DNA of 32,000 bases from NCBI RefSeq assembly GCF_000009705.1, contig NC_003272.1, positions 1,320,001-1,352,000 of the forward strand, given 5' to 3'. A model generated the notes under the pieces. It made no database searches. It saw only the letters and a list, made by a program, of their open reading frames with translations, and was not told where the DNA came from. A program made the position numbers and the translations under genes. The stretch comes from Nostoc sp. PCC 7120 = FACHB-418 (GTDB lineage Bacteria > Cyanobacteriota > Cyanobacteriia > Cyanobacteriales > Nostocaceae). This document shows, piece by piece, positions 1,644-32,000 of this stretch. The stretch's first letter is position 1. The number at the start of each line of letters is the position of its first letter.

Positions 1644-3014
1644 CTAGACATTTAGTGGCTGTCTATTGTTGGCTGCTGAGTAATTATTTGTATCGTTGCT
1701 ATCGTCAAAATTGTTGGCAAATGCTAGTGATTCTTTTCCAGTAATCAATCTTGAGCCACGTTTGCGAGTGATGTAGTTCCACGCCCACTGAATCATGACT
1801 AATAGTTTGCTGTCAAACTCAATGAGGAAGTAGATGTGAATCAATAGCCAGAACGCCCATGCAGAGAAGCCTTTCAACTTGAGCAAGCCTAAATCTACAA
1901 CGGCTGCATTTTGCCCAATCATCGCTAGGCTACCGTGATCATTATATTTAAAGGCTGGCAGAGTTTTCCCTTGCAAGCGTTTTTTAATCAATTTGGCGAC
2001 GTATTCACCTTCTTGGATGGCGACTGGTGCAACACTAGGAAGAGGTTGACCGTTTTGGTGAGAGAAGTTGGCTAAGTCTCCCACAACGAAAATATTTTGG
2101 TGTCCTTTAATACTTAAGTCTGGTTCAACGATCGCTCGTCCGGCGCGATCGCATTCTACCCCAGTTCGTTCGGCTAAAACTTTCCCCATAGGAGATGCTT
2201 TCACACCTGCTGCCCATAATATAGTCTTGGAGGTGATTGTTTGCAATTCATCGCCTTGCTTAAAGGTAACGATGTCGTTTTCAATACTTGTGACTCTTGT
2301 TTTTGTCTGGACAACCACACCGAACTCTCGCAGAGATGTTGTGGCTGCTTGGGATAATTCTGGTGCAATGTGTGGGAGGATGCGATCGCCACCTTGCAAT
2401 AGTAATATTCTAGTTTCTGAGGTGTTGATGTTGCGGAAATCTTCTTGGAGAGTCTTGTATGCTAACTCGGCGATCGCTCCTGCTAATTCTACACCTGTAG
2501 GGCCGCCACCGACAATCACGAAAGTCAATAAAGCCTTGCGTTTTTCGAGGTCAGTTTCTTTTTCTGCTGCTTCAAATGCGCCAAATATCCGGCGACGCAT
2601 TTCTATCGCATCTTCAACAGTTTTCAAGCCAGGCGCTAATTCTTGCCAGTTATCTTTACCAAAATAGGAATGCTTTGCACCTGTGGCAACAATTAAGGTG
2701 TCATAAGGTACTACTTTATCACCTACAATAATTTGTTGTAAGTTGGGATCAATATCATTGACTTCTCCCAGCAACACTTTTGTATTCTTACTTTTGCTGA
2801 GTACAGATCGCAATGGTGCGGAAATATCAGCCGGTGATAGCGTACCTGTAGCAACTTGATATAAAAGTGGCTGAAATAAATGAAAGTTACGTTTATCGAT
2901 GAGAGTAACATTTACATTCGTTTTAGCTAGTGCCTTTGCCGCATACAGTCCACCAAAGCCACCACCAACGATTACAACCTCATGTGGTTGATGATTCTCA
3001 AGTGAAGCTACCAT
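1644..3014 (-). CDS. ndh: Type-2 NADH dehydrogenase (NDH-2), paralog A
   Basis: Two Rossmann dinucleotide motifs (VIVGGGFGGLYAAK and VIVGGGPTGVELAG), KRNFHLFQPLLYQVATG, GDLANF, and a hydrophobic C-terminal membrane-association segment (WAFWLLIHIYFLIEF). Confidence 0.93.
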   Translation of the reverse strand: MVASLENHQPHEVVIVGGGFGGLYAAKALAKTNVNVTLIDKRNFHLFQPLLYQVATGTLSPADISAPLRSVLSKSKNTKVLLGEVNDIDPNLQQIIVGDKVVPYDTLIVATGAKHSYFGKDNWQELAPGLKTVEDAIEMRRRIFGAFEAAEKETDLEKRKALLTFVIVGGGPTGVELAGAIAELAYKTLQEDFRNINTSETRILLLQGGDRILPHIAPELSQAATTSLREFGVVVQTKTRVTSIENDIVTFKQGDELQTITSKTILWAAGVKASPMGKVLAERTGVECDRAGRAIVEPDLSIKGHQNIFVVGDLANFSHQNGQPLPSVAPVAIQEGEYVAKLIKKRLQGKTLPAFKYNDHGSLAMIGQNAAVVDLGLLKLKGFSAWAFWLLIHIYFLIEFDSKLLVMIQWAWNYITRKRGSRLITGKESLAFANNFDDSNDTNNYSAANNRQPLNV

Positions 3015-3202
3015 AAGAAATATTTCCCTGATTTGAAAGTTCTGTAACTGTTCTTAATAAAGATGTAACAGAATCATAATATTTGTTGCAGTTTATTTTG
3101 AACACTTGACAAAATAATTAAGTTAATCAGGGTTACTATTTGGTCATTGGTCAATAGTCATTCTTCGGGACTTCCCCTGCTGATTTAGCTGAAAATAAAT
3201 AT

Positions 3203-3244
3203 GGAATAGGTATCTTACCTAATATTAAGCAAGATACCTATTCC
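3203..3244 (-). terminator. Strong hairpin between the two NDH-2 paralogs
   Basis: Perfect 14-bp stem GGAATAGGTATCTT (3203-3216) / AAGATACCTATTCC (3231-3244). On the minus strand it is followed by ATATTTATTTTC. It lies downstream of the paralog B stop (3383) and upstream of the paralog A start (3014). Confidence 0.6.
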
Positions 3245-3325
3245 ACAAATTTCAGGTCAATACTAGTACAGCACAGAGTAAATAAGCAGACCATTTCAAA
3301 CAAGCAAAAGCCTTGATATATGAAA

Positions 3326-3346
3326 CTTTTGACTTTTGACTTTTGA
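3326..3346. repeat. Heptamer tandem repeat (CTTTTGA x3), STRR-like
   Basis: Three direct tandem copies are read in the sequence. Confidence 0.7.
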
Positions 3347-3382
3347 TTTCCGCCTTGCGGTACTATCTACTCAGCAAACATT

Positions 3383-4744
3383 TTAGACATTGACTGGTAG
3401 TCTCTTTTCTAAAGGCTGGTAATGACCGCTATTGTTAACAGTGTTGACTGCTAAATGAATTTCTTGACCTGTAATCAATCTAGCTCCACGATTACGAGTG
3501 ATATAATTCCATACCCATTGAATCATGACTACTAACTTATTATCAAACTCAATGAGGAAGTAGATGTGAATCACTAACCAGAACAACCATGCAAAGAAGC
3601 CTTTGAGTTTGATGAAGCCTAAATCAACAACGGCGGCATTTTGTCCAATCATCGCTAGACTACCTTTATCAGTGTAGTTAAAGGCTGGTAGAGTTTGACC
3701 TTGCAAGCGTTTTTGAACCAATGCGGCGACGTATTCACCTTCTTGTTTGGCGACGGGTGCGACACCAGGGAGGGGTTTACCATTTTGGTGAGAGAAGTTG
3801 GCTAAGTCTCCCACAACAAAAATATTGCTGTGTCCCTTAATGCTTAAGTCTGATTCTACGATGACTCGGCCAGCGCGATCGCATTCTACCCCAGTTTTTT
3901 CGGCTAAAACTTTACCCATAGCTGATGCTTTCACACCTGCTGCCCATAATACAGTCTTGGAGGCAATTTCTTTGACTTCCTCACCTTGTTTGAGGGTGAC
4001 GATATCATTCTCAATATTTGTAACTAGAGTTTTTGTCTGGACAAGCACACCCAACTGCTTCAAGGATATTTCCGCTTCCTGGGATAATTCTGGTGCAAAA
4101 GGAGGGAGGATTCTATCTAAACCTTCTAGGAGGATGACTTGGGTTTCTGTGGTGTCGATGTTGCGGAAATCTTCTTTGAGGGTTTTGTATGCTAATTCTG
4201 CGATCGCTCCTGCTAACTCTACACCAGTAGGGCCGCCACCGACAACCACAAAGGTCAACCAAGCACGACGCTTTGCAGGGTCTTTTTCTTTTTCTGCTGC
4301 TTCAAAGGCGGTAAAGATGCGGCGACGCATTTCTATCGCATCTTCCACTGTTTTCAACCCTGGTGCAAACTCTTCCCAGTTATCTTTACCAAAGTAGGAA
4401 TGCTTTGCACCAGTGGCGACAATTAAGGTGTCGTAGGGAATTTTTTCATCACCCATCACCAATTCTTGTGCTTCTGGGTCAATATCGTTTACTTCTCCCA
4501 GCAATACTTGGGTATTCTTGCTTTTACTTAATACTGCGCGTAAAGGCGAGGAAATATCTGCTGGTGAGAGCGTACCTGTTGCAACTTGATAAAGTAGTGG
4601 CTGAAATAGGTGGAAGTTCCGCTTGTCGATGAGAGTCACGTCTACTTTAGCTTTAGCCAGAGCTTTTGCTGCATACAATCCACCAAAACCGCCACCGACA
4701 ATCACAACTTTATGGGGTGGGTTGTTATCAAGTGCTTCAACCAT
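3383..4744 (-). CDS. ndh: Type-2 NADH dehydrogenase (NDH-2), paralog B
   Basis: Same motif set as paralog A. The two align without gaps over nearly the full length, with roughly four fifths of residues identical by eye. Only the last ~35 aa diverge. Confidence 0.93.
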   Translation of the reverse strand: MVEALDNNPPHKVVIVGGGFGGLYAAKALAKAKVDVTLIDKRNFHLFQPLLYQVATGTLSPADISSPLRAVLSKSKNTQVLLGEVNDIDPEAQELVMGDEKIPYDTLIVATGAKHSYFGKDNWEEFAPGLKTVEDAIEMRRRIFTAFEAAEKEKDPAKRRAWLTFVVVGGGPTGVELAGAIAELAYKTLKEDFRNIDTTETQVILLEGLDRILPPFAPELSQEAEISLKQLGVLVQTKTLVTNIENDIVTLKQGEEVKEIASKTVLWAAGVKASAMGKVLAEKTGVECDRAGRVIVESDLSIKGHSNIFVVGDLANFSHQNGKPLPGVAPVAKQEGEYVAALVQKRLQGQTLPAFNYTDKGSLAMIGQNAAVVDLGFIKLKGFFAWLFWLVIHIYFLIEFDNKLVVMIQWVWNYITRNRGARLITGQEIHLAVNTVNNSGHYQPLEKRLPVNV

Positions 4745-4896
4745 AAGAATTATTTCCTTGTGTTACGAGTGTTGTAACTATTCTTAACAAATTTGTATCA
4801 AAAATGTCACAATTATTTCTGTTTATTTTGAACATATAAAAAATTGCTTAAAGTTACCAAAAAGACAAACATTGAGTAATTTAAGCTACATAGTTG

Positions 4897-4930
4897 TAAT
4901 TGTTAACTGTTAACTGTTGACTGTTAACGG
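4897..4930. repeat. Heptamer tandem array (TAACTGT / TGACTGT units), STRR-like
   Basis: taattgt-taactgt-taactgt-tgactgt-taacgg read directly. It is the reverse complement of the CAACAGT-type STRR heptamer known from Anabaena/Nostoc. Confidence 0.75.
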
Positions 4931-5216
4931 CCATCACGATGGATTATGTAATTTAAAATCAGACAACAACGGTTAGCAAACCAGTCAACAACAGCAGGAA
5001 AAATGATAGTTGACAATTTTGGTAACTAAAATGTTAGCTGACTTAGCTGATTGAAACTATACCAATTGCGGCAATTCGCTGTTAAACTCTCTTTACCTGC
5101 CCTGGGTTCTTTGAGCCTCGGCGGTGTGACTATTCTAAATTTTCCCTTAGACTACTTGAGAATTTTTCATTAATTGATACACTTGTTCTTCATTAACATC
5201 AGTTAACTAGCACTGC

Positions 5217-8200
5217 ATGGTGCATATTAAGCGCGTAGAACTTACCAATTTCAAATCCTTCGGCGGTACGACCTCTGTCCCATTGCTGTCGGGGTTCACT
5301 GTCGTATCTGGGCCTAATGGTTCGGGTAAGTCTAATATTTTGGATGCGCTGTTGTTTTGTTTGGGACTAGCCAGTTCTAAGGGGATGCGGGCAGACCGCT
5401 TACCCGATTTGGTTAATAATACTCAAACGGCGAAAAGTCGCTCGGCTGTGGAAGCTGTGGTGACGGTGACATTTGATTTATCGGATTTGGTGGATGCGAG
5501 TGATCAGTTTTTATCTGTCAGTGATGATGCAGAATTATCTCAGAATGAAGCGCCTACAGTAAATGGGAATGGTCACAGAGCTACAGAATGGAGTGTGACT
5601 AGGAAATTGCGGGTGACGCATCAGGGTAGTTATACCTCGAATTACTACATCAATGGGGTTTCGGCGACGCAGACAGAGTTACATGAGGAGTTGGAGCGGC
5701 TGCGGATTTACCCTGAAGGTTATAACGTGGTGTTGCAAGGGGATGTCACCAGTATTATCTCCATGAAGGGTAAGGAACGGCGAGAAATTATTGATGAGTT
5801 GGCGGGGGTGGCGACTTTTGATAGGAAGATTCATCAAGCCAAGGGAACTTTAGATGAGGTCAAGGATAAGGAAGATAGTTGTAAGATTATTGAGTCTGAG
5901 TTAACTTTACAACGCGATCGCCTTTCCCAAGACAGAGCAAAGGCGGAGAGGTATCAAAAGTTACGCACAGAGTTTTTAGAAAAGCAATGTTGGGAAGCGG
6001 TATTATCTTGGCGTTCCCTACAAGCACAGCAAGAGAAGTTAGTTACAGATATTCAAGCAGGCGATCGCCATTATGGCGAACTGACAACTCAGCTTGCAAG
6101 CTTAAATACAGAAATTTCTCAAAAAACGGCTGAACTCGAACAGCTAAATGCTCATGTGAAAGCAATGGGGGAGGAGGAACTGCTGGCGGTACAGTCTACC
6201 TTAGCTACCCAAGAAGCGGAACGGAAGCAACTCCAGCGTCAGCAAACGGAGTTAGACACGGCTTTGCAAGAAACTACCAAACGTTTGGCGCAAACTCAGC
6301 ATGATATTCAACAGCATCAGCAAGGTTTGGGTGAACTGGCGCAAGCACAGGATTTAGAAAGACAATCGATTGTTTATTGTCAGCAGCAACGGGATGAAGC
6401 ACAACAAGCTTTGGAAAAGTCCCGCGAAGCCGCAGCAGAAATAGCTTCAGCGTCGGAAGCATGGGTACAGCAACAAACGGCGTTGAACCGTCAAATTGAG
6501 GCTGTGTTGCAAACTTTGGAGCCGCAACGCACAGAACAAGCGCAACTGAGGGAACGGAATAATCAGTTACAGCAGTTAATTGGGGAACAAACCGAGTTAA
6601 TTGCTGGATTAGAACCGCAATTAGCTGAGAAACAAGCCGATTGTGAACGCATAGAAACAGAATTTAACTCCTCTGGCGAACCCATCCAAGATTTAGCCCA
6701 AAATCTTGCAGCCACAGAACAGGAATTACAAATCCAGCAAGATACCCAAAAGCGGCTATTACAAGAACAACGGGACAAACAACGTCAGCTAGATAGAATT
6801 GAGGCGCAAGCACAAGCACAGCAAGAGGTACAAGGAACCCAAGCCAGTAAAGTGATTATCCAGTCGGGAATGCCTGGGGTATGCGGCTTGGTGGTACATT
6901 TGGGACGGGTAGAACCCAAGTTTCAATTAGCGTTAGAAATTGCGGCTGGGGCGCGGCTGGGACACATTGTGGTAGAAGATGATGGTATAGCAGCCGCCGG
7001 AATTGAACTACTCAAACAAAAACGGGCTGGGAGAGCGACGTTTTTACCGTTAAATAAAATTCAGTCTCACAAATTTACCCAGGATGCGACGCTGCGTTTA
7101 GCTAATGGTTTTGTTAACTATGCCGTGAATTTGGTAGACTGCGATCGCCGTTATAAAGACATCTTCAATTACGTTTTTGGTAATACTGTCGTCTTCGCCA
7201 ACCTGGAAGCAGCGCGGAAAAATCTCGGCTTATATCGCATCGTTACTTTGGATGGAGAACTACTAGAAACCAGTGGCGCGATGACTGGGGGAAGTAGTAA
7301 CCAGCGTTCCTCCCTCCGGTTTGGGAATACAGAAGCCGCAGAATCAGATGAAGCCATTGGCTTAAAACAGCGTTTAGCCGATATTGATCGGATTTTAAAC
7401 CGTTGTGGTGATGCGATCGCTAATTTAGTCATCAAAACCAAACAACTATCCCAAGAACTCACTGAAACTCGACAAGCACGGCGAGAACAGCAGTTACAGT
7501 TGGAACAGTTGCGAAAAGATATTCAGAGTTTAACAGCCCAGTTGACAGGGACGCGATCGCAACTCACCCAAAACACCGAGAAATTTACCACAGCCCAATC
7601 TCGCCTGGAGATTTTAGATAGGGACTTACCAGGACAAGAAAGCCAATTACAACAACTACGCCACACCCTAGCCGAGTTAGAAGCCTCCCAAACCCCCAGC
7701 GAATGGCAACAAATTCAGGCGACAATTAAAACCCAAGAACAACAAATACAACAACGGGAAACCGCCTTTAGGGAAGCCGAACAACGCTTAAAAAATCTAG
7801 AAAATCAACAACAGCGTTTACAAGAACGCATCCAAGAAGCCCAACAGCGCATCACCGAATATCAAACCCAACAAACCACTTGTACAGAAGCGATTAATCG
7901 CGTCTCTCAACAAACCACAACCATAAACGCACAAATCACCCAAACCCGCGCCAAACTCAGCGAACTTGAACAACACCTCGGCGCAGAAAAACAAAAACGC
8001 GACACAATTGAACAAGAAGTGCGATCGCACCTCCTGCGTCAGCAACAATTAGAATGGGAAATTCAAAAACTGGAAGAAACCCAACTTAAACGCCGGGAAG
8101 ACTTAACCGCCTTACAAAGCCAGTTACAGGAACTAGTCCCAGAACTACCCAACCCTTTGCCAGAAGTCCCAGACAAGGTAGACTTAGAAGAATTGCAGAA

Positions 8201-24345: not shown

Positions 24346-25218
24346 ATGATCATGACCATACTACGTAAAGTCACAGTAATTTTTTTAGCAGTCAGCTTAT
24401 GCTTGACAACCGTTGCTTGTGGAGGAGGAGAACAAACCAACTCTACAAATCGGAATGTAAGCCAAACTTCTGCTACTACTAAACTCAATGACGGTCAGTA
24501 TCAAGTACAACAAGCCACTTACGATGATGCTAGTGGGGAATACACCCTATTTTTGCTCAACAGTACACCCCCAACCTTTGCCACCGAAAACTTGCAAATG
24601 GCTCGCCTGACCGACGATGAAATCAAAGAAGGTAAGAAAAGTTATCTGAAGGTTGACAATGGACAACCAGTTTTATATTTGACAGAAGATTTTAAAATTG
24701 AGTACGTTCATAACGTTACCGAGAATAAAACTAATCCTCAAACCGGACAGCAAGAAACAGTTGTAGTTCGTCGGGAAAATGGCTTTTGGGCCCCCTTTGC
24801 TGGTTCTGTCGCTGGTAGTATAGCAGGTCAGGCGATCGGTAATGCCTTGTTTAGACCCCAGTACTATGTTCCCCCCGTCTATCAACCAGGTGGAGTAATT
24901 AGGGGCTTTGGTGGATATGGTAATAGTTACGACCAAGCGGTATCCAGCTACCGCAGCCGTTATAATGCGCCACCAGCAGCCGTAAGAAATCGGACGGCTT
25001 TCCGTACCACCGGAACCATTAGAAGGTCTCCTAGTTCCACTGTCCGTACTGCACCACGCACCACCACAAACCGTCCTTCTGGTTCCGGTTTTGGCGGTAG
25101 CACCTTAAGACCTTCTGGCAAATCCAGCACCACCAGACGCAGCCCTAGCGGTAGTAGTTTTGGTAGCGGACGCTCTCCTGCCCGCCGTTCAACTGGTTTC
25201 GGTTCCAGACGGCGCTAG
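24346..25218 (+). CDS. Lipoprotein with Gly-zipper hydrophobic segment and R/S/T/G/P-rich basic tail
   Basis: Signal peptide plus lipobox-like LTTVAC|GGG. Hydrophobic Gly-rich segment FWAPFAGSVAGSIAGQAIGNALF. The last ~90 aa are almost entirely R/S/T/G/P. Confidence 0.75.
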   Translation: MIMTILRKVTVIFLAVSLCLTTVACGGGEQTNSTNRNVSQTSATTKLNDGQYQVQQATYDDASGEYTLFLLNSTPPTFATENLQMARLTDDEIKEGKKSYLKVDNGQPVLYLTEDFKIEYVHNVTENKTNPQTGQQETVVVRRENGFWAPFAGSVAGSIAGQAIGNALFRPQYYVPPVYQPGGVIRGFGGYGNSYDQAVSSYRSRYNAPPAAVRNRTAFRTTGTIRRSPSSTVRTAPRTTTNRPSGSGFGGSTLRPSGKSSTTRRSPSGSSFGSGRSPARRSTGFGSRRR

Positions 25219-27220: not shown

Positions 27221-27530
27221 GTCCTATAAATCCTACTTATCTATCGGAGCCATGCCAAAAATTAGGTGATTTACTCAACCTGATGTAGACAATTCTAAAA
27301 AGGATTTCACCGAAAAGCCGTAAAGATATAAAGAGTATTTTGATAGTTAATCAATAGTGAAAATACTGACTCAATATCAATTAATATTGCTGTAATTTTC
27401 TATATTACGTATATCAATCAAGAATTATTTAACTTGAAGATTCAAAAATTCATCGTGGTTTTATAAATTCCCACCACCAATTATCAATTTATAAAGAGAC
27501 TTACTTGGTCAACAAACCATGTTGCCAAAA

Positions 27531-27574
27531 TGTACTAAAAATTACCCATATCTCTCTTTTCCAAAAATTAAACT
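27531..27574 (+). promoter_or_regulatory. Candidate NtcA-type (class II) promoter upstream of the dynamin-like gene
   Basis: TGTA-ctaaaaat-TACC (GTA 27532-27534, TAC 27543-27545) matches GTA-N8-TAC. A TAN3T -10 candidate TAAACT (27569-27574) lies 23 nt downstream. Chance matches are plausible in AT-rich DNA. Confidence 0.25.
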
Positions 27575-27726
27575 CTCCACACCCTTCTGCATCCTCGCTT
27601 GAGTAAATCACACCCTGGTTCAACTACGCCAAAGCAACTAATCAACAAGATGGCAAATAGGAAAGTGAAAAGATTTTTTTTGTGTTATAAAACTCACAGA
27701 AATTTATCTTAGCGGAAAGCTGCTCT

Positions 27727-30270
27727 ATGGAGCCAGAAAAACTGGGACGTTTTAAAGAGTACGGCGAACTTATTCTTCAAAAATTAGATTTTGTTCCTCA
27801 ATCTCCCTCGCAACAAGAAGACTGGGTTCCTGCTAGTCTGGATGATTGTCTTTTACGTCTACGGGAAGCTGCCCAAAAAACGGTAGAACTGGCTACCTCA
27901 CCCGTAAAAATTGGCGTGATGGGAGAATTTAGTAGTGGTAAAACTCTTCTGTTGGGTAGTCTCATCGGCTATGCAGATGCTTTACCTATCAGCGAAAATC
28001 CCACTACAGGAAACGTTACAGCGATTCATCTTATCCCTCATCCGGGTTTTACCACTACCCAGGTTGGTAACTTCACCGTTGAGTATCTGACTCGTGAGGG
28101 GGTAAATGAGTGTTTGCGCTTCATGTTAGGAGAAGCCAATCGTCGGACAATAGCAGCCGGACTTCCAGCAATGCAACCGGCAAAACTCAACTCTGGGAAA
28201 GAAATTCTCAGTTGGTGTGAAGCCAGTTGGAAGAGTAGTAATAATTTAGAGTTGCGTTATCTGCTGCGGGAGTTGGTGCTGTTTATCCGCGCCTATGGTT
28301 CCTATGGGGAAGCTCTCTGTGGCGGACGCTATGAAATTGACCCTGACTCCGCCCGTGAAGGTTTGCAATTGGCGGAACAGCCTTTGGCTATCCAAACTCT
28401 TGGCTTTGAAGATTTACCACCAGCTCATATTCGTTTACCAAGTCCACCGCAAAAGTTAGCTACCAAGTTATTACAAAATAGTTTCCCCTTAATTCGCCGT
28501 GTGGATATTGATGTGAAAATCTCTAGGGAAATTTGGGATATTACAGATGCTTCCGAATTTACTCTTCTGGATTTTCCGGGGTTGGGTGCGGCTAACTCTG
28601 GTGCTAGGGATACGTTTTTATCATTGCGGGAATTGGCAGAAGTACAGACGATTTTGGTACTGCTCAATGGTAAATCGCCGGGGAGCGATCGCGCTAATAA
28701 AATTTTTACGATGATGCAGCAGCAGCGCCCAGGACAAGACCTGAAGGATTTAATTTTGGTGGGCGTGGGACGGTTTGACCAGTTACCGTTGGAAAGTGAA
28801 GGGGGGGAAAGACTACTTGACCAATTAATTGATGAAAGTCGAACGCCGCATTTAACAGCAGATAAGGTTTTACAACAACTCAGGGTTTTACAAACCACCA
28901 TCGACGGCGCGAGTGCATTCACCACCAACAAAGACCGCATCGCTTTACTCTCACCTCTGTTGGGACTGGCGGAACTAGCCAAGCGTTCCAGCACTATCAA
29001 AGCAGGTTCACCAGAGTTTTTGGCTAACTTAGACTATCCCAATTACTTGGAGCGCTCGAAACAGTTGCAGCAAAAGTGGGGATATTTGAGCGATCGCCTG
29101 ATAGAATCAGATCCACGCAGCCATTTAAGTCGCAAGTTAGGTTACTTTGCTCAAGACGGGGGTATCGCCAAGCTACGGGAATTGATGCAGAATCACGTTG
29201 CGACTCACGGACTTAAGCAACTGTATGAGGATACTAGCCGCGCTGCCGATAATTTACGGCAACAACAAGATAATCTCAAAGGTATCATCGCCGAAATTCA
29301 TGAGCAAGGCATACCCACAGGCGACAGTCAGGCTTTAATTGATTTGCGGACTGCGTTGGAAAATTTAGATAAAACCTATCGCAACTTCCAAAAAGATTTG
29401 GGTAAAGAACCACTCAAAGACCGCCGGGGAACTGTGGTTAGTGATGTGGTGAAAGATGAATTGACCTTTAGAGTTTTGAGTTGGAATCATTGGACTTTGT
29501 TATTTAACAAAGCGAATAATGGCACAATCACCATTACAGAATCGAAGGGTGCAGCCGGGAAGTTATTTGACAGGGGAAATAGAACTAATACCAGTATTCC
29601 TACCAAGAGTGATGATTTTTATCCCGCTTTTGAAAAGACTGTCAAAGAAGTAGAAGAATTTGCGCGCGATCGCATCCGCCAAGCAGTGGTAGACTTACTG
29701 AGTAAATTATCTCAACAAATCGCCCCAGAACGAGAACGTTTGCAAGCACTCCTCAACCCAGAAATAGAACAAGAGATTGAAAGCAAATTTGGTGGGGAAG
29801 AAGCTGATTTATTTTACCAATTGTTGTTAGGTAGTGACCCGATCCAATGGCAAGCAGCAATCATATCGGAAATTAATCATCAAGAAAAATTCCTCACACC
29901 AGATATTATTTTCCCTCTGGCGCGTCAGGATGAAAAACATGATATTGGTCAAATCTTTGATTGGTCGCCGGAAAAAGCACAAACTCTATCTAAGTCCAGT
30001 AATCATCAAATGTTCGTATTAAGACTACGGGATGAAATTACTGCTAGTGCCAGCTTACATTTGGTGCAATATGTTAGTGAAGTTAATCAAAGAGTCAATG
30101 CCGAATTAGATGGAATTTTAGATCAAATTATTCCCACCTTGCAAAATATCTCCAAAAAAGATGGCTTGCTGAGGTTTATTGCTGCTGGCGATACTCAATC
30201 ATCGGGTGCAGTTCCAGTTTGGTTACAAAATCTCTCGGAAATTGCCGATTTAGCAGTCAAATATCAGTAA
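27727..30270 (+). CDS. Dynamin-like large GTPase (bacterial dynamin-family protein)
   Basis: G1 GEFSSGKT (aa 66-73, nt 27922-27945); G2-like NPTTGNVT (aa 91-98); G3 DFPG (aa 282-285, nt 28570-28581); G4-like GRFD (aa 348-351, nt 28768-28779). About 490 aa of helical, stalk-like sequence follows. No obvious TM segment. Confidence 0.85.
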   Translation: MEPEKLGRFKEYGELILQKLDFVPQSPSQQEDWVPASLDDCLLRLREAAQKTVELATSPVKIGVMGEFSSGKTLLLGSLIGYADALPISENPTTGNVTAIHLIPHPGFTTTQVGNFTVEYLTREGVNECLRFMLGEANRRTIAAGLPAMQPAKLNSGKEILSWCEASWKSSNNLELRYLLRELVLFIRAYGSYGEALCGGRYEIDPDSAREGLQLAEQPLAIQTLGFEDLPPAHIRLPSPPQKLATKLLQNSFPLIRRVDIDVKISREIWDITDASEFTLLDFPGLGAANSGARDTFLSLRELAEVQTILVLLNGKSPGSDRANKIFTMMQQQRPGQDLKDLILVGVGRFDQLPLESEGGERLLDQLIDESRTPHLTADKVLQQLRVLQTTIDGASAFTTNKDRIALLSPLLGLAELAKRSSTIKAGSPEFLANLDYPNYLERSKQLQQKWGYLSDRLIESDPRSHLSRKLGYFAQDGGIAKLRELMQNHVATHGLKQLYEDTSRAADNLRQQQDNLKGIIAEIHEQGIPTGDSQALIDLRTALENLDKTYRNFQKDLGKEPLKDRRGTVVSDVVKDELTFRVLSWNHWTLLFNKANNGTITITESKGAAGKLFDRGNRTNTSIPTKSDDFYPAFEKTVKEVEEFARDRIRQAVVDLLSKLSQQIAPERERLQALLNPEIEQEIESKFGGEEADLFYQLLLGSDPIQWQAAIISEINHQEKFLTPDIIFPLARQDEKHDIGQIFDWSPEKAQTLSKSSNHQMFVLRLRDEITASASLHLVQYVSEVNQRVNAELDGILDQIIPTLQNISKKDGLLRFIAAGDTQSSGAVPVWLQNLSEIADLAVKYQ

Positions 30271-30273
30271 TTA

Positions 30274-30298
30274 GTAATTAGTAGCCACCACTAATTAC
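30274..30298 (+). other. Intercistronic hairpin between the GTPase and Hsp70-like genes
   Basis: Perfect 9-bp stem GTAATTAGT (30274-30282) / ACTAATTAC (30290-30298) with a 7-nt loop. It overlaps a GTAATTA tandem duplication that starts inside the stop codon region. No T tract follows. Confidence 0.6.
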
Positions 30299-30320
30299 GA
30301 CTGCATAGGGAACCGATCAA

Positions 30321-32000
30321 ATGCCTGTAAAAATTCAGCTTGCACCACGCTTTCAGATGCGGGTTAATGAAAAAAAATATCTGGAACTTCCCACGATTCA
30401 ATTAATTGGTACTGGGAACAATGTCCCCCATATTTCCCGCATAACCTGCACTGTCAAAGGCGCATCAAGTGAATTGGCATTAAAAATAGAAAAATCCTAT
30501 AGACAATTTGAATCTGCTACACCAAAAATTTCTCAAATTGGGCAATTAGAGCAGTATCCTTGTAAACTAGAGCAAACTTTCACACAAGCCATCAACTGTA
30601 ATTTACAAGTAATTGTTGAATATTTCGATTCCGATTTATCAGGAAATCCCCTGCTATCTGCACGCAAAAAAATAGCAGCTTATTGTCATCTGTGGTCACT
30701 ACCTATGAAACCAACAACACAACCAGATAATACCCAAGAAATCCGTAATCATGAAAAACAACCCGATATTAAACAACGGAAAAGATTCCCCGGTTGGTTT
30801 GCTTTAGACTTCGGTACATCTAATTCTACGGTGACACTTTTTGACCCAATTGAAGTGCCAATTGCCGAAGTTTTACCGAGAGAACAGGAGTTAAGATTAC
30901 GCGATCGCCTATCTCAATGGTTGAGTTCTCCGGCTGCTATTGCCTTACCAGAAGCAAGCGCCAGTGAATGGGATAAGTTTACCCTTGATATTAGTAAAAA
31001 TTTAGAAATCGACCCTAGTAACTTACATGAAGTTTTTCAAACTGATAATAAAGAAAGATTTTTAGAAGCGATTCGACAAATAGAATTATGTTTAGGAAAT
31101 AGTGATAGATTTCGTCACGCTATCAGCAGAAAATTATATAATATCTACCATGAAGTTTTTCGTGTACCTACCTTAGAATCACAAAATCTCATTCCTGTAG
31201 TCTTAGATATTGACCGCCGCGATACAGAAATTCCCAGCGAGTTAGAAATCTCCAGTTTGACAGATTTAAATATTCGCATGGGTAGGGAAGCAAGAGACAA
31301 TCGCAAAAAGGCGATCGCTCAAGGAACCAGCAGTTCTCTCAAAGAAATTATCAGCAGATTTCACCATTCACCAAAACGTTACTTTGGACAAAAGCGTGAT
31401 TTCTCAGTTATTTTAGATGGCGCAGAAGAAACAATTAATGTTAATCAACTTGTACAAGCAGCTTGGTCACATTTAATTGATTTAACTGAAGATTATCGCC
31501 AACGCGCCAGACGCAGATTTTCTGACGGGGAATTTTTAACCGCAGTTGTCACCTACCCCACAGTTGCACCGCCAGTAGTGCGGAAAGAAGTCAAAGAATT
31601 AGTTGAACAATTAGGGATAGATGACGTACAAACTGCCTATGATGAAGCGGTATCTGTAGCCATCTTCTTTCTATGGCGTGAGTTTGGTGGTAATCTCAAC
31701 ATTGGCATTGAGTCTTTTAAAACTCGTTGCCGTCAAGAGAAAAATAAATGGTCGCAAAACGTTCTCGTCTTAGATATTGGTGGCGGAACCACAGACTTAG
31801 CTTTAATTGAACTCACCCTAGAAGATAAAACACCATTCTTTAGTAGTAATGAAGATAGAGGCTTAGGCGGACGTTATTATAAACTCACGCCGAAACTGCT
31901 GGGTTCCTCTGGACATTTACAACTGGGTGGCGAATTAATCACCTTGCGCGTGTATAGATTGTTAAAAGTGGCGATCGCTGATACTTTACTCACAGCAATT
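30321..32000 (+). CDS. Atypical Hsp70/actin-fold ATPase with N-terminal extension (partial, runs off the window)
   Basis: Hand translation from the ATG at 30321 gives 560 codons with no stop up to nt 32000. Phosphate-1 motif FALDFGTSNST (aa 160-170, nt ~30798-30830). Phosphate-2 motif VLDIGGGTTDL (nt ~31767-31799). AYDEAVSVAIFF resembles the Hsp70 EPTAAALAY segment. It is not in the ORF track because it has no stop. Confidence 0.85.
   Translation, partial: MPVKIQLAPRFQMRVNEKKYLELPTIQLIGTGNNVPHISRITCTVKGASSELALKIEKSYRQFESATPKISQIGQLEQYPCKLEQTFTQAINCNLQVIVEYFDSDLSGNPLLSARKKIAAYCHLWSLPMKPTTQPDNTQEIRNHEKQPDIKQRKRFPGWFALDFGTSNSTVTLFDPIEVPIAEVLPREQELRLRDRLSQWLSSPAAIALPEASASEWDKFTLDISKNLEIDPSNLHEVFQTDNKERFLEAIRQIELCLGNSDRFRHAISRKLYNIYHEVFRVPTLESQNLIPVVLDIDRRDTEIPSELEISSLTDLNIRMGREARDNRKKAIAQGTSSSLKEIISRFHHSPKRYFGQKRDFSVILDGAEETINVNQLVQAAWSHLIDLTEDYRQRARRRFSDGEFLTAVVTYPTVAPPVVRKEVKELVEQLGIDDVQTAYDEAVSVAIFFLWREFGGNLNIGIESFKTRCRQEKNKWSQNVLVLDIGGGTTDLALIELTLEDKTPFFSSNEDRGLGGRYYKLTPKLLGSSGHLQLGGELITLRVYRLLKVAIADTLLTAI

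Follow-up and report, generated by a model that had tools for sequence, protein, structure and literature searches.

A three-gene cluster, alr1146-alr1147-alr1148, begins near the right-hand end of the 32,000-nucleotide stretch of Nostoc sp. PCC 7120 DNA that was analysed here (contig NC_003272.1, positions 1,320,001 to 1,352,000; hereafter the window), which takes in its first two-thirds, and continues beyond it. The cluster is a three-gene module, tightly linked well beyond close relatives, and consists of a dynamin-like protein (DLP; alr1146), a giant predicted ATPase with an Hsp70-type nucleotide-binding domain (alr1147), and a third protein of 364 amino acids (aa; alr1148). An initial annotation, made from the window sequence alone, had described the first two genes as a candidate module of two nucleoside triphosphatases (NTPases) with its right end outside the window; the right end was indeed recovered from another copy of the locus, and the number of genes had to be raised to three, since the alr1148 family accompanies the pair. 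What is new in the present analysis is the complete linkage from either anchor, the actinobacterial triads and their extensions, the fusion of a TIR domain to one homologue of the ATPase, and the probable remote relationship to SrfB and SrfC.

The linkage was evident from both ends of the gene pair. With the ATPase as anchor, in a set comprising Nostocales, Micromonospora carbonacea, Sphaerimonospora cavernae, two further genome assemblies and metagenomes, the DLP was present at all loci that had informative flanks (16/16), and the third gene was found wherever the sequence extended far enough. The reciprocal, DLP-anchored scan of metagenomes retrieved 19 family members; the ATPase was the next gene in each of the 16 that had downstream sequence, and the third gene was found in 12 of 13. 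As a control, 15 unrelated DLP loci that came from the same scan had one to three DLP open reading frames (ORFs) each, often in tandem, and the ATPase was at none of them (0/15). All three genes were retained even where their order was permuted, as in the metagenomic locus L021, in which the order is ATPase, third gene, DLP. A partial exception is Scytonema sp. HK-05 (L012), where an opposite-strand gene for a 1107-aa NB-ARC and TPR (STAND) protein (2578-5904) splits the DLP and the ATPase by 6 kb. It is to be noted that, when genome contigs were scanned with the alignment of the ATPase, generic Hsp70 motifs overwhelmed the result and only 13 loci were obtained, and the phyletic counts therefore rest on the protein searches and the metagenome scan. 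The third gene itself has no match to any Pfam or PADLOC family and no transmembrane (TM) segment, and its family is marked by the conserved motifs LPPxxxxSWW, CLR and GRV(I/L)F. Two checks that the initial annotation had proposed for its gene pair, neighborhood co-occurrence and profile searches, both left the pairing standing: linkage was 16/16 each way and extended beyond close relatives, and the profiles placed the first protein in the dynamin superfamily and the second in the Hsp70/actin fold.

Within the window, the stop codon of alr1146 (30268-30270) is followed by the next ATG at 30321, from which the frame stays open for 560 codons up to the window end. The remaining cluster was provided by locus L003 (CP183473.1), which is 100% identical to the window over 29900-32000; here, alr1147 reaches its full length of 1128 aa, and alr1148 is a same-strand ORF that lies 138 nucleotides (nt) past it, after which the coding strand switches. 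No terminator-like site was detected on the plus strand between alr1146 and alr1147 in the identical L003 locus, and no second dynamin, J-domain or GrpE gene was found in the 22.5-kb locus. What the initial annotation described in the sequence was correct in each detail that could be checked. By exact-sequence look-up, the products of alr1146, alr1147 and alr1148 are BAB73103, BAB73104 and BAB73105, respectively, and the spacings of 2594 and 3525 nt found here agree with the published starts of these locus tags (1347626, 1350220 and 1353745). The exact 847-aa alr1146 protein is present on many contigs, as found by protein look-up. As a separate observation, the 138-nt spacer between alr1147 and alr1148 (L003 15982-16119) contains GC-rich, mutually complementary stretches (…cgcagaggggtgatgaggtaggcgcggaggtacgcggagag … gcgcctctgcgtgag…) that resemble the short dispersed repeats of Nostoc genomes, and a hairpin formed by them might separate the expression of alr1148 from that of alr1147.

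By its motifs, its Pfam match and its predicted fold, alr1146 is dynamin-like, and all three agree with the earlier description of an 847-aa protein with ordered G1 to G4 elements. These elements are G1 GEFSSGKT (residues 66-73), switch-I PTTGNVT (92-98), in which T93/T94 represents the G2 threonine, G3 DFPG (282-285) and G4 GRFD (348-351), in which R replaces the K of the dynamin-type (N/T)(K/R)xD. In 37 family members, with identity down to 20%, residues G66, G71, K72, T94, D282-G287 and D351 were invariant. Pfam Dynamin_N scored 32.0 bits against a cut-off of 27 (1.6e-7), the match covering residues 62-109 and model positions 1-47 of 168 only; the same model matched nine of ten diverse members of the DLP family, with a best E of 3.9e-11. 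The predicted layout starts with N-terminal helices and continues with a GTPase domain, into which ~190 aa are inserted between G2 and G3, and then a long bundle of helices.

An AlphaFold2 alignment of 24 Nostocales sequences gave an unusable model (pLDDT 44). Use of distant DLP homologues from other loci as the profile query retrieved 24 actinobacterial and metagenomic relatives, and the model eventually used, from an alignment of 37 sequences that included the actinobacterial homologues, had a pLDDT of 83.7 and a pTM of 0.62. When this model was compared with the PDB by Foldseek, all 50 matches listed (to E = 1.1e-5) belonged to the dynamin superfamily, headed by SynDLP (2e-14) and including Nostoc BDLP (1.6e-9), Campylobacter DLP1/2, IniA, dynamin-1, MxA/B, Drp1, mitofusins and Fzo1; the global TM-scores were low (0.2-0.3), as expected with hinged multi-domain proteins. 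Single-sequence phmmer searches of the PDB with alr1146 and alr1147 were uninformative, and family profiles were used instead, for which the best PDB match of the DLP family was the Campylobacter DLP 5owv. Bacterial DLPs such as BDLP, DynA, SynDLP and IniA bind and remodel membranes. The characterised ones (SynDLP Slr0869, Nostoc BDLP, Campylobacter DLP1/2, B. subtilis DynA, M. smegmatis IniA, E. coli LeoA) have the GTPase and helical-bundle fold in common with the modeled alr1146 (Foldseek E = 2e-14 to 6e-8), whereas alr1146 is only 9-15% identical to them, is set apart by its G2-G3 insert, and has neither a tandem or fused second DLP nor a hydrophobic paddle or TM segment. Moreover, alr1146 has an obligate Hsp70-fold ATPase partner, which none of these characterised DLPs has. 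A conserved W586/W589 element stands beside a basic, low-confidence loop (601-626) in the model, and the two could constitute an interaction loop of the SynDLP type.

In Micromonospora carbonacea, the DLP (L014 5797-8007) has lost the P-loop, reading …LLAEGDDDHVVSH… where GxxxxGKS/T is expected; its G3 is degenerate and it contains internal deletions, and this protein is a probable pseudo-GTPase by sequence. The partner ATPase and the third gene at the same locus are intact despite the decayed DLP. A 191-aa antisense ORF (TTG start; rich in Ser, Leu and Cys) lies within alr1146 of PCC 7120 (window 28425-29000, minus strand) and is most likely spurious.

The second gene had been taken for an atypical member of the Hsp70 family, on the basis of two phosphate-binding motifs in a frame of at least 560 aa that starts 50 nt downstream of the first. 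Both motifs were indeed seen, phosphate-1 (DFGTSNS) at 163 and phosphate-2 (DIGGGTTD) at 485, with a ~250-aa insert between them; past the window end, the protein continues through the adenosine-site region into a ~350-aa C-terminal region and a DPFCGIH tail. A co-linear nucleotide-binding domain upholds the Hsp70 part of that assignment; the notion of a divergent chaperone does not stand, and, as judged from its sequence, alr1147 is an SrfB-like giant with an Hsp70 nucleotide-binding domain and not a classical Hsp70. Specifically, the two Pfam models that matched it both stayed below their gathering scores, SrfB at 25.2 / 24.7 bits (cut-off 27.1) and HSP70 at 15.6 / 14.4 bits (cut-off 20.6), and the SrfB match spans model positions 509-600 of 992 only. 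A profile built from 40 ATPase sequences matched the nucleotide-binding domains of DnaK, SSB and BiP, with E down to 4.9e-10, and was co-linear with DnaK 4-25, 81-162, 188-211 and 262-364 (using a DnaK sequence entered by hand), which correspond to phosphate-1, the TYPT/ITVPAYF strand, phosphate-2 and the IIB-IIA/adenosine region. Residues D164, G166, K353, D442, E443, D486, G488, T491, D493 and G741 are invariant in the family, which is consistent with an active ATPase; overall, the nucleotide sites of both alr1146 and alr1147 keep their catalytic residues and appear intact. No substrate-binding domain or lid was detected in the alr1147 family by sequence comparison, since the alignments to full-length DnaK and BiP end at chaperone residue ~365-378, and the ~350-residue C-terminal region had no detectable match by sequence. 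Thus, canonical DnaK and alr1147 share the nucleotide-binding domain, whereas the substrate-binding domain of DnaK and its J-domain and GrpE partners were not seen at this locus.

The ATPase family is small, comprising 427 representatives (50% clustering, E <= 0.001) among the 1.84 billion representatives of the searched library (~15 billion proteins), many of them full length, with identity down to 29%. It is defined by the ~250-aa insert after phosphate-1, the ~350-aa C-terminal region, and the motif DPFxGxH, which occurs at the extreme C-terminus in nearly all members. The motif, which in alr1147 occupies residues 1122-1128, looks like a docking tail, in a position analogous to the EEVD tail of Hsp70. 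The N-terminal region, in turn, is variable, ranging from 15 to 582 residues; it is ~155 aa in alr1147 (1-155) and 240-300 aa in others, and there are Nostoc homologues that lack the first ~130-150 residues of alr1147. At the metagenomic locus L021 (3391-8040), a 1549-aa homologue carries an N-terminal TIR domain and a low-complexity helical linker of ~450 aa ahead of the ATPase, and a DDE transposase adjoins this locus. Hsp70-like genes of Paenibacillus and Brevibacillus (L015-L017, L020) were considered as family members and rejected, since they match at phosphate-2 only and have no DLP neighbor, and they belong to a different system. These encode a ~900-aa Hsp70-like protein, the Paenibacillus ones lacking the DPFxGxH tail, and the operon, which is conserved, also codes for a PP2C-like/TPR protein and three small uncharacterised proteins; this may be another uncharacterised Hsp70-fold system.

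The distribution of the cluster is that of an old and stable possession of one cyanobacterial group. Across dozens of Nostocales genera, reduced-genome bloom formers among them, its orthologues share 73-99% identity, and in Nostoc the flanking synteny is kept, with the kinase upstream (an all1145-type kinase precedes the DLP in Nostoc loci L008 and L013 also) and, downstream, genes for a methyltransferase and for a member of glycosyl-transferase family 3 (Glycos_transf_3). The cluster is ancestral to the heterocyst-forming cyanobacteria and has been inherited vertically at a stable core-genome position; outside them, it is shared only with filamentous actinobacteria, homologues being found in Streptomyces, Actinomadura, Spirillospora, Kitasatospora, Sphaerimonospora and Micromonospora. 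This agrees with the independently found hits of Simm et al. (2015), who recorded outside matches only in Streptomyces aurantiacus and Frankia. In the actinobacterial loci L014 and L023, NTPases of the dynamin fold, the actin fold and the tubulin fold occur within one operon, and a second Hsp70-like gene follows the triad in L028.

The pairing had initially been taken for an undescribed one, which proved not to be the case, as the genes and their association had been catalogued before. Jilly et al. (2018, Front Plant Sci, PMC5827413) sorted the DLPs of cyanobacteria according to sequence and genomic context, and delineated a ‘chaperone clade’ of 11 members, all heterocystous (including Cylst_0498, NSP_34240 and Nos7524_3124), in which the downstream gene encodes a DnaK domain or SrfB and is annotated as ‘molecular chaperone’ or ‘Virulence factor SrfB’. 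Since alr1146 is ~77% identical to proteins of chaperone-clade species (Cylindrospermum stagnale PCC 7417, Nodularia spumigena), we regard that clade as the same gene family and arrangement as alr1146-alr1147. Their study recorded adjacency only, called the partner a DnaK-domain Hsp70, and did not list the copies of PCC 7120 and ATCC 29413; the third gene, the SrfB-like nature of the ATPase and its missing substrate-binding domain, the actinobacterial homologues and the induction by nitrogen step-down are likewise not in it. Earlier, alr1146 had been named a Nostocales signature protein, ‘Hypothetical (847)’, by Gupta and Mathews (2010), and all three genes appear in Table 6 of Simm et al. (2015) among the 51 function-unknown genes of a 93-gene core of heterocyst formers. 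These three papers contain no functional test and do not treat the triad as a unit or recognize the nature of the ATPase; their cyanobacterial members are heterocystous only. The family is enriched in multicellular cyanobacteria, as the initial annotation had surmised. A literature search on SrfB with Hsp70 or dynamin found no paper linking them. In public annotation, orthologues of alr1146 are often called ‘proteasome protein’, and one alr1148 orthologue is called ‘Fido domain-containing protein’; no domain match obtained here backs either name.

NCBI also names many alr1147 orthologues ‘virulence factor SrfB’, and the products of srfABC have been reported as a cytotoxic complex in Proteobacteria. 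Genuine srfABC loci were recovered from Erwinia and Brenneria, the Erwinia SrfB scoring 1297 bits over its full length on Pfam SrfB. By hhalign, the ATPase family aligned with canonical SrfB over 134 columns at 96.5% probability, and the alignment took in the block after phosphate-2, a feature absent from Hsp70; together with the sub-cut-off Pfam score, this makes alr1147 a remote relative of SrfB and not a member. Both SrfB (PF07520) and alr1147 are Hsp70-fold ATPases of ~1000 aa that share TYPT-AP-R, DEA, DIGGGTTD and a KxxPxLL block; the DPFxGxH tail, however, is present in the triad family and absent from canonical SrfB. Likewise, SrfC (PF10139) and the DLP are both P-loop GTPases of ~800 aa that begin with helices, place G1 near residue 70-76, and have a long insert between G2 and G3 as well as (I/L)LDFPG(F/L)G and (K/R)FD. 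The hidden Markov model of the DLP family matched Brenneria SrfC with a score of 15.6 bits, in a stretch made up of the N-terminal helices and the P-loop, and greedy hhalign, with an SrfC profile of two sequences, aligned G1, G3 (LLDFPGLG vs ILDFPGFG) and G4 co-linearly over 604 columns (59%, E = 9e-5). Both srfABC (Salmonella, Xenorhabdus, Haemophilus) and alr1146-1148 are three-gene units with the ATPase beside the GTPase, although the order is DLP-B-third in the triad and A-B-C in srfABC, and the third components are unrelated: SrfA is bitopic in the membrane and has pseudokinase and lipocalin domains, whereas alr1148 is a soluble protein and bears no similarity to SrfA. Judging from these sequence comparisons, the GTPase-ATPase pair is probably, at roughly even chances, a remote relative of SrfC-SrfB with an unrelated third component.

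Published RNA-seq data (Flaherty 2011, supplement) offer a view of expression at 6, 12 and 21 h following nitrogen step-down. The fold changes were 1.3, 9.1 and 5.3 for alr1146, 0, 2.5 and 1.8 for alr1147, and 1.8, 8.7 and 7.7 for alr1148, and the divergent kinase gene all1145 changed by 4.0, 8.4 and 8.0; the flanking genes alr1144 (1.0, 1.4, 1.1) and all1149 (1.3, 2.6, 0) are given for comparison. Thus, alr1146, alr1148 and all1145 are co-induced, ~9-fold at 12 h. The region between alr1146 and all1145 had been described as a 500-bp AT-rich divergent region that insulates the module on the left; its size and composition were confirmed (506 bp, with a GC content of 0.28-0.32 against 0.40-0.48 in the flanking coding DNA), and the insulation was not, since the co-induction of the cluster and all1145 makes it a shared regulatory region, and all1145, being divergent and co-induced, a candidate regulator of the cluster. 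The sole conserved block in an upstream alignment of seven Nostocaceae loci was TGTTATAAA(A/G)CTCACAGAAATT, in which the TGT and AA columns are invariant; with its extended -10-like TGnTATAAA, this element is the probable proximal promoter of the cluster. A perfect match to the NtcA consensus GTAN8TAC also lies in this region (27532-27545, GTACTAAAAATTAC), with a correctly spaced TAN3T box. The window contains 10 copies of GTAN8TAC where 5.9 are expected, a number that only 3 of 100 shuffles reach. Promoter and terminator scans of the sequence were at chance level.

We tentatively favor, as a proposal for function, a DLP-centered membrane-remodeling machine that the Hsp70-like ATPase regulates or recycles and that operates in the differentiation response to nitrogen deprivation. 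The three soluble proteins would most likely work as one machine driven by nucleoside triphosphates (NTPs). The DLP would self-assemble on a membrane surface by means of its helical bundle and the conserved basic/aromatic loop around 586-632, and the ATPase, perhaps by way of the DPFxGxH tail at its C-terminus, would engage either the DLP or alr1148, spending ATP to load, remodel or disassemble the DLP assembly. The output would be membrane remodeling or maintenance during differentiation under nitrogen deprivation, for example, the reorganisation of thylakoids and polar membranes in the heterocyst. Streptomyces DynA/DynB function in sporulation septation. To our knowledge, no characterised system couples a dynamin-like GTPase obligately to an Hsp70-fold ATPase, and the coupling would be a new way to power or regulate a bacterial dynamin. 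The cluster makes up three of the 51 function-unknown genes in the 93-gene heterocyst-specific core and responds to nitrogen step-down, and, as PCC 7120 is genetically tractable, its function is directly testable. Its links to filamentous actinobacteria, to operons of tubulin-like, vWA and DO-GTPase genes, and probably to srfABC, also join three poorly understood gene sets under a common hypothesis. In a bolder version, which we consider unlikely, the triad would be the minimal core of an unrecognised machine of multicellular bacteria, in which a dynamin-fold GTPase and an actin/Hsp70-fold ATPase (joined in actinobacteria by tubulin-fold and vWA proteins) execute a cell-fate step, be it heterocyst membrane reorganisation or an apoptosis-like or immune response, the SrfABC ‘toxins’ being its proteobacterial offshoot. 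If this were true, bacteria would have three folds linked at the operon level that in eukaryotes form the basis of membrane trafficking and the cytoskeleton, and what srfABC does would have to be reconsidered.

Several observations weigh against the membrane-remodeling proposal, all the functional steps of which are ones that we infer. A hydrophobic segment is missing from all three proteins (in alr1146, the 19-residue Kyte-Doolittle mean never exceeds 1.1), and, with no obvious paddle either, the putative membrane binding by the DLP is surmised from its fold class. As the Micromonospora DLP lacks an intact P-loop, GTP hydrolysis is not universally required. As to expression, induction by nitrogen step-down does not demonstrate heterocyst-specific expression, the read counts were low (3 to 26 reads for all1145), and alr1147 was induced far less than its neighbors, which is not what a simple single operon would give. 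The arrangement of NtcA-like site and TAN3T box was not conserved upstream of the orthologues in other Nostocales, so it is weak evidence and is treated as a lead only, and the heterocyst DIF motif TCCGGA was absent upstream of alr1146. On the srfABC side, Pfam Virul_Fac (SrfC) did not match alr1146 and matched one of ten family members at E = 0.08, and the comparison of alr1148 with SrfA by hhalign returned a probability of 0.1%. Two further points speak at the same time for a role in biological conflict, namely, the TIR domain fused to the ATPase with a transposase as neighbor (L021), and the actinobacterial triads that stand in tight operons with DO-GTPase2 (L022, L026) or with vWA and a ~1000-aa Tubulin_2 protein (L014, L023).

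A conflict role stays the main rival on account of that TIR fusion, the conflict-type neighbors and the loss of the Micromonospora P-loop, although we hold it to be rather improbable. According to it, the triad is the core of an NTP-dependent conflict system (anti-phage or programmed cell death) of multicellular bacteria, in which the variable N-terminal domain of the ATPase senses the invader, and the DLP and ATPase serve either as threshold switches or as effectors that assemble to seal or disrupt membranes. Such a role would suit the variation of the ATPase N-terminal region over 15-582 residues, the decay of the GTPase in Micromonospora, the STAND or NB-ARC genes that adjoin or interrupt the triad in L012 and L025, and the confinement of the triad to multicellular filamentous lineages. 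The Nostocales copy, in contrast, is a near-universal, syntenic and highly conserved core cluster amid housekeeping genes, whereas defence systems are as a rule mobile and patchily distributed. Nitrogen deprivation induces the cluster, the PCC 7120 locus has no recognisable effector, and no copies of the triad were found in phage, viral-contig or plasmid searches. The weak PADLOC match to LeoA, which might be counted in favor, is confined to the P-loop (21.9 bits) and is not significant; PDC-M61B and ZorG gave E >= 0.005, alr1148 drew no hit, and there are no LeoBC-like genes at the locus. The analogy drawn on here is with the GTPase-centric systems of Kaur, Burroughs, Iyer and Aravind (2020, eLife, PMC7159879), who read the DO-GTPase/tubulin/vWA/HSP70 systems of multicellular bacteria as conflict systems, itself only a computational inference. 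Their systems and the triad share a multicellular preference and the combination of TRAFAC GTPases with Hsp70-fold and tubulin-fold proteins. However, their HSP70 is canonical and comes with GrpE and DnaJ, whereas the triad ATPase is not; the DO-GTPase-GAP1 pair that defines their systems is absent from the PCC 7120 locus, DO-GTPase2 occurring only beside the triads of L022 and L026; and the words dynamin and SrfB have no occurrences in that paper. The defence role suggested in the initial annotation is therefore disfavored for the Nostocales copy, given its core setting, synteny and conservation, with no effector and no PADLOC, phage or plasmid hits, and it keeps some ground in that distant homologues lie among conflict-type genes.

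A general module for envelope or membrane-stress repair, of the DynA/IniA type, would explain the nitrogen induction as part of a broad stress response, the module then having no function specific to differentiation. Under stress, DynA and IniA protect membranes or repair them, the nearest folds to the DLP are those of SynDLP, BDLP and IniA, the co-induced, divergent PAS-GAF kinase could be a stress sensor, and no heterocyst-specific promoter motif was found. Nonetheless, confinement to heterocyst formers and filamentous actinobacteria is hard to explain for generic repair, the need for two extra dedicated proteins is without precedent among repair DLPs, and other cyanobacteria use different DLP clades (Jilly et al. 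2018, PMC5827413); we thus consider such a module distinctly unlikely. Least credible is that the genes are merely adjacent, with the Hsp70-like protein serving as an ordinary chaperone. The lesser induction of alr1147 relative to alr1146 and alr1148, the 138-nt spacer before alr1148 and the NB-ARC-TPR gene of 1107 aa that stands between DLP and ATPase in Scytonema HK-05 could be cited for it. Set against them, however, is a linkage of 16/16 both ways that holds at 20-30% identity, in two phyla, and survives permutation of gene order; the ATPase family, for all its small size (427 representatives), travels with this DLP clade at every locus examined; and no substrate-binding domain, J-protein or GrpE was detectable. 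By the co-occurrence counts, mere adjacency is effectively refuted.

Table 1 Positions of the cluster, its upstream elements and the actinobacterial extensions (window coordinates unless a locus is named)
Feature	Coordinates	Strand or arrangement	Basis or source
all1145, sensor histidine kinase with PAS-GAF-HisKA-HATPase domains, 641 aa	25295..27220	-	ORF and Pfam domains
Divergent intergenic region between all1145 and alr1146, 506 bp	27221..27726		GC 0.28-0.32
NtcA-consensus-like site GTACTAAAAATTAC, then TAAACT (TAN3T -10 box) 23 nt on	27532..27574	+	Lead only
Conserved element TGTTATAAA(A/G)CTCACAGAAATT, 22-44 nt 5' of the alr1146 start codon	27683..27705	+	Seven-locus upstream alignment
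alr1146, soluble dynamin-like GTPase (DLP), 847 aa	27727..30270	+	Motifs, Pfam, AlphaFold2, Foldseek
alr1146/alr1147 spacer, 50 nt, no terminator-like hairpin	30271..30320	+	Sequence scan
alr1147, first 560 of 1128 codons, predicted SrfB-like giant Hsp70/actin-fold ATPase	30321..32000	+	Motifs, profiles, hhalign
vWA and ~1000-aa Tubulin_2 protein after the triad	L014 12333-16962; L023 11202-15797	Same operon	Micromonospora, Sphaerimonospora
Two DO-GTPase2-like genes and a ~250-aa protein after the triad	L022 11192-13741; L026 5199-7823	Same operon	Actinobacterial

The other genes of the window are of a housekeeping nature and encode a GST, two tandem type-2 NADH dehydrogenases (NDH-2), SMC, a PRC-barrel protein and UvrB; there were no tRNA genes in the window, and no Rfam family reached the gathering score in it. 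The gene next to all1145, alr1144 (window 24346-25218, plus strand), encodes a 290-aa protein with an N-terminal lipoprotein-like signal (…LTTVACGG) and a long C-terminal tail rich in Ser, Arg and Thr; it has no Pfam match, and was listed as a cyanobacteria-wide signature protein by Gupta and Mathews (2010). The two NDH-2 genes are paralogous (Pyr_redox_2 and NDH2_C domains; 456 and 453 aa) and lie on the minus strand at window 1644-3014 and 3383-4744. Each of them has a 199-aa antisense ORF in the corresponding place, probably an artefact of reading frame that came with the duplication.

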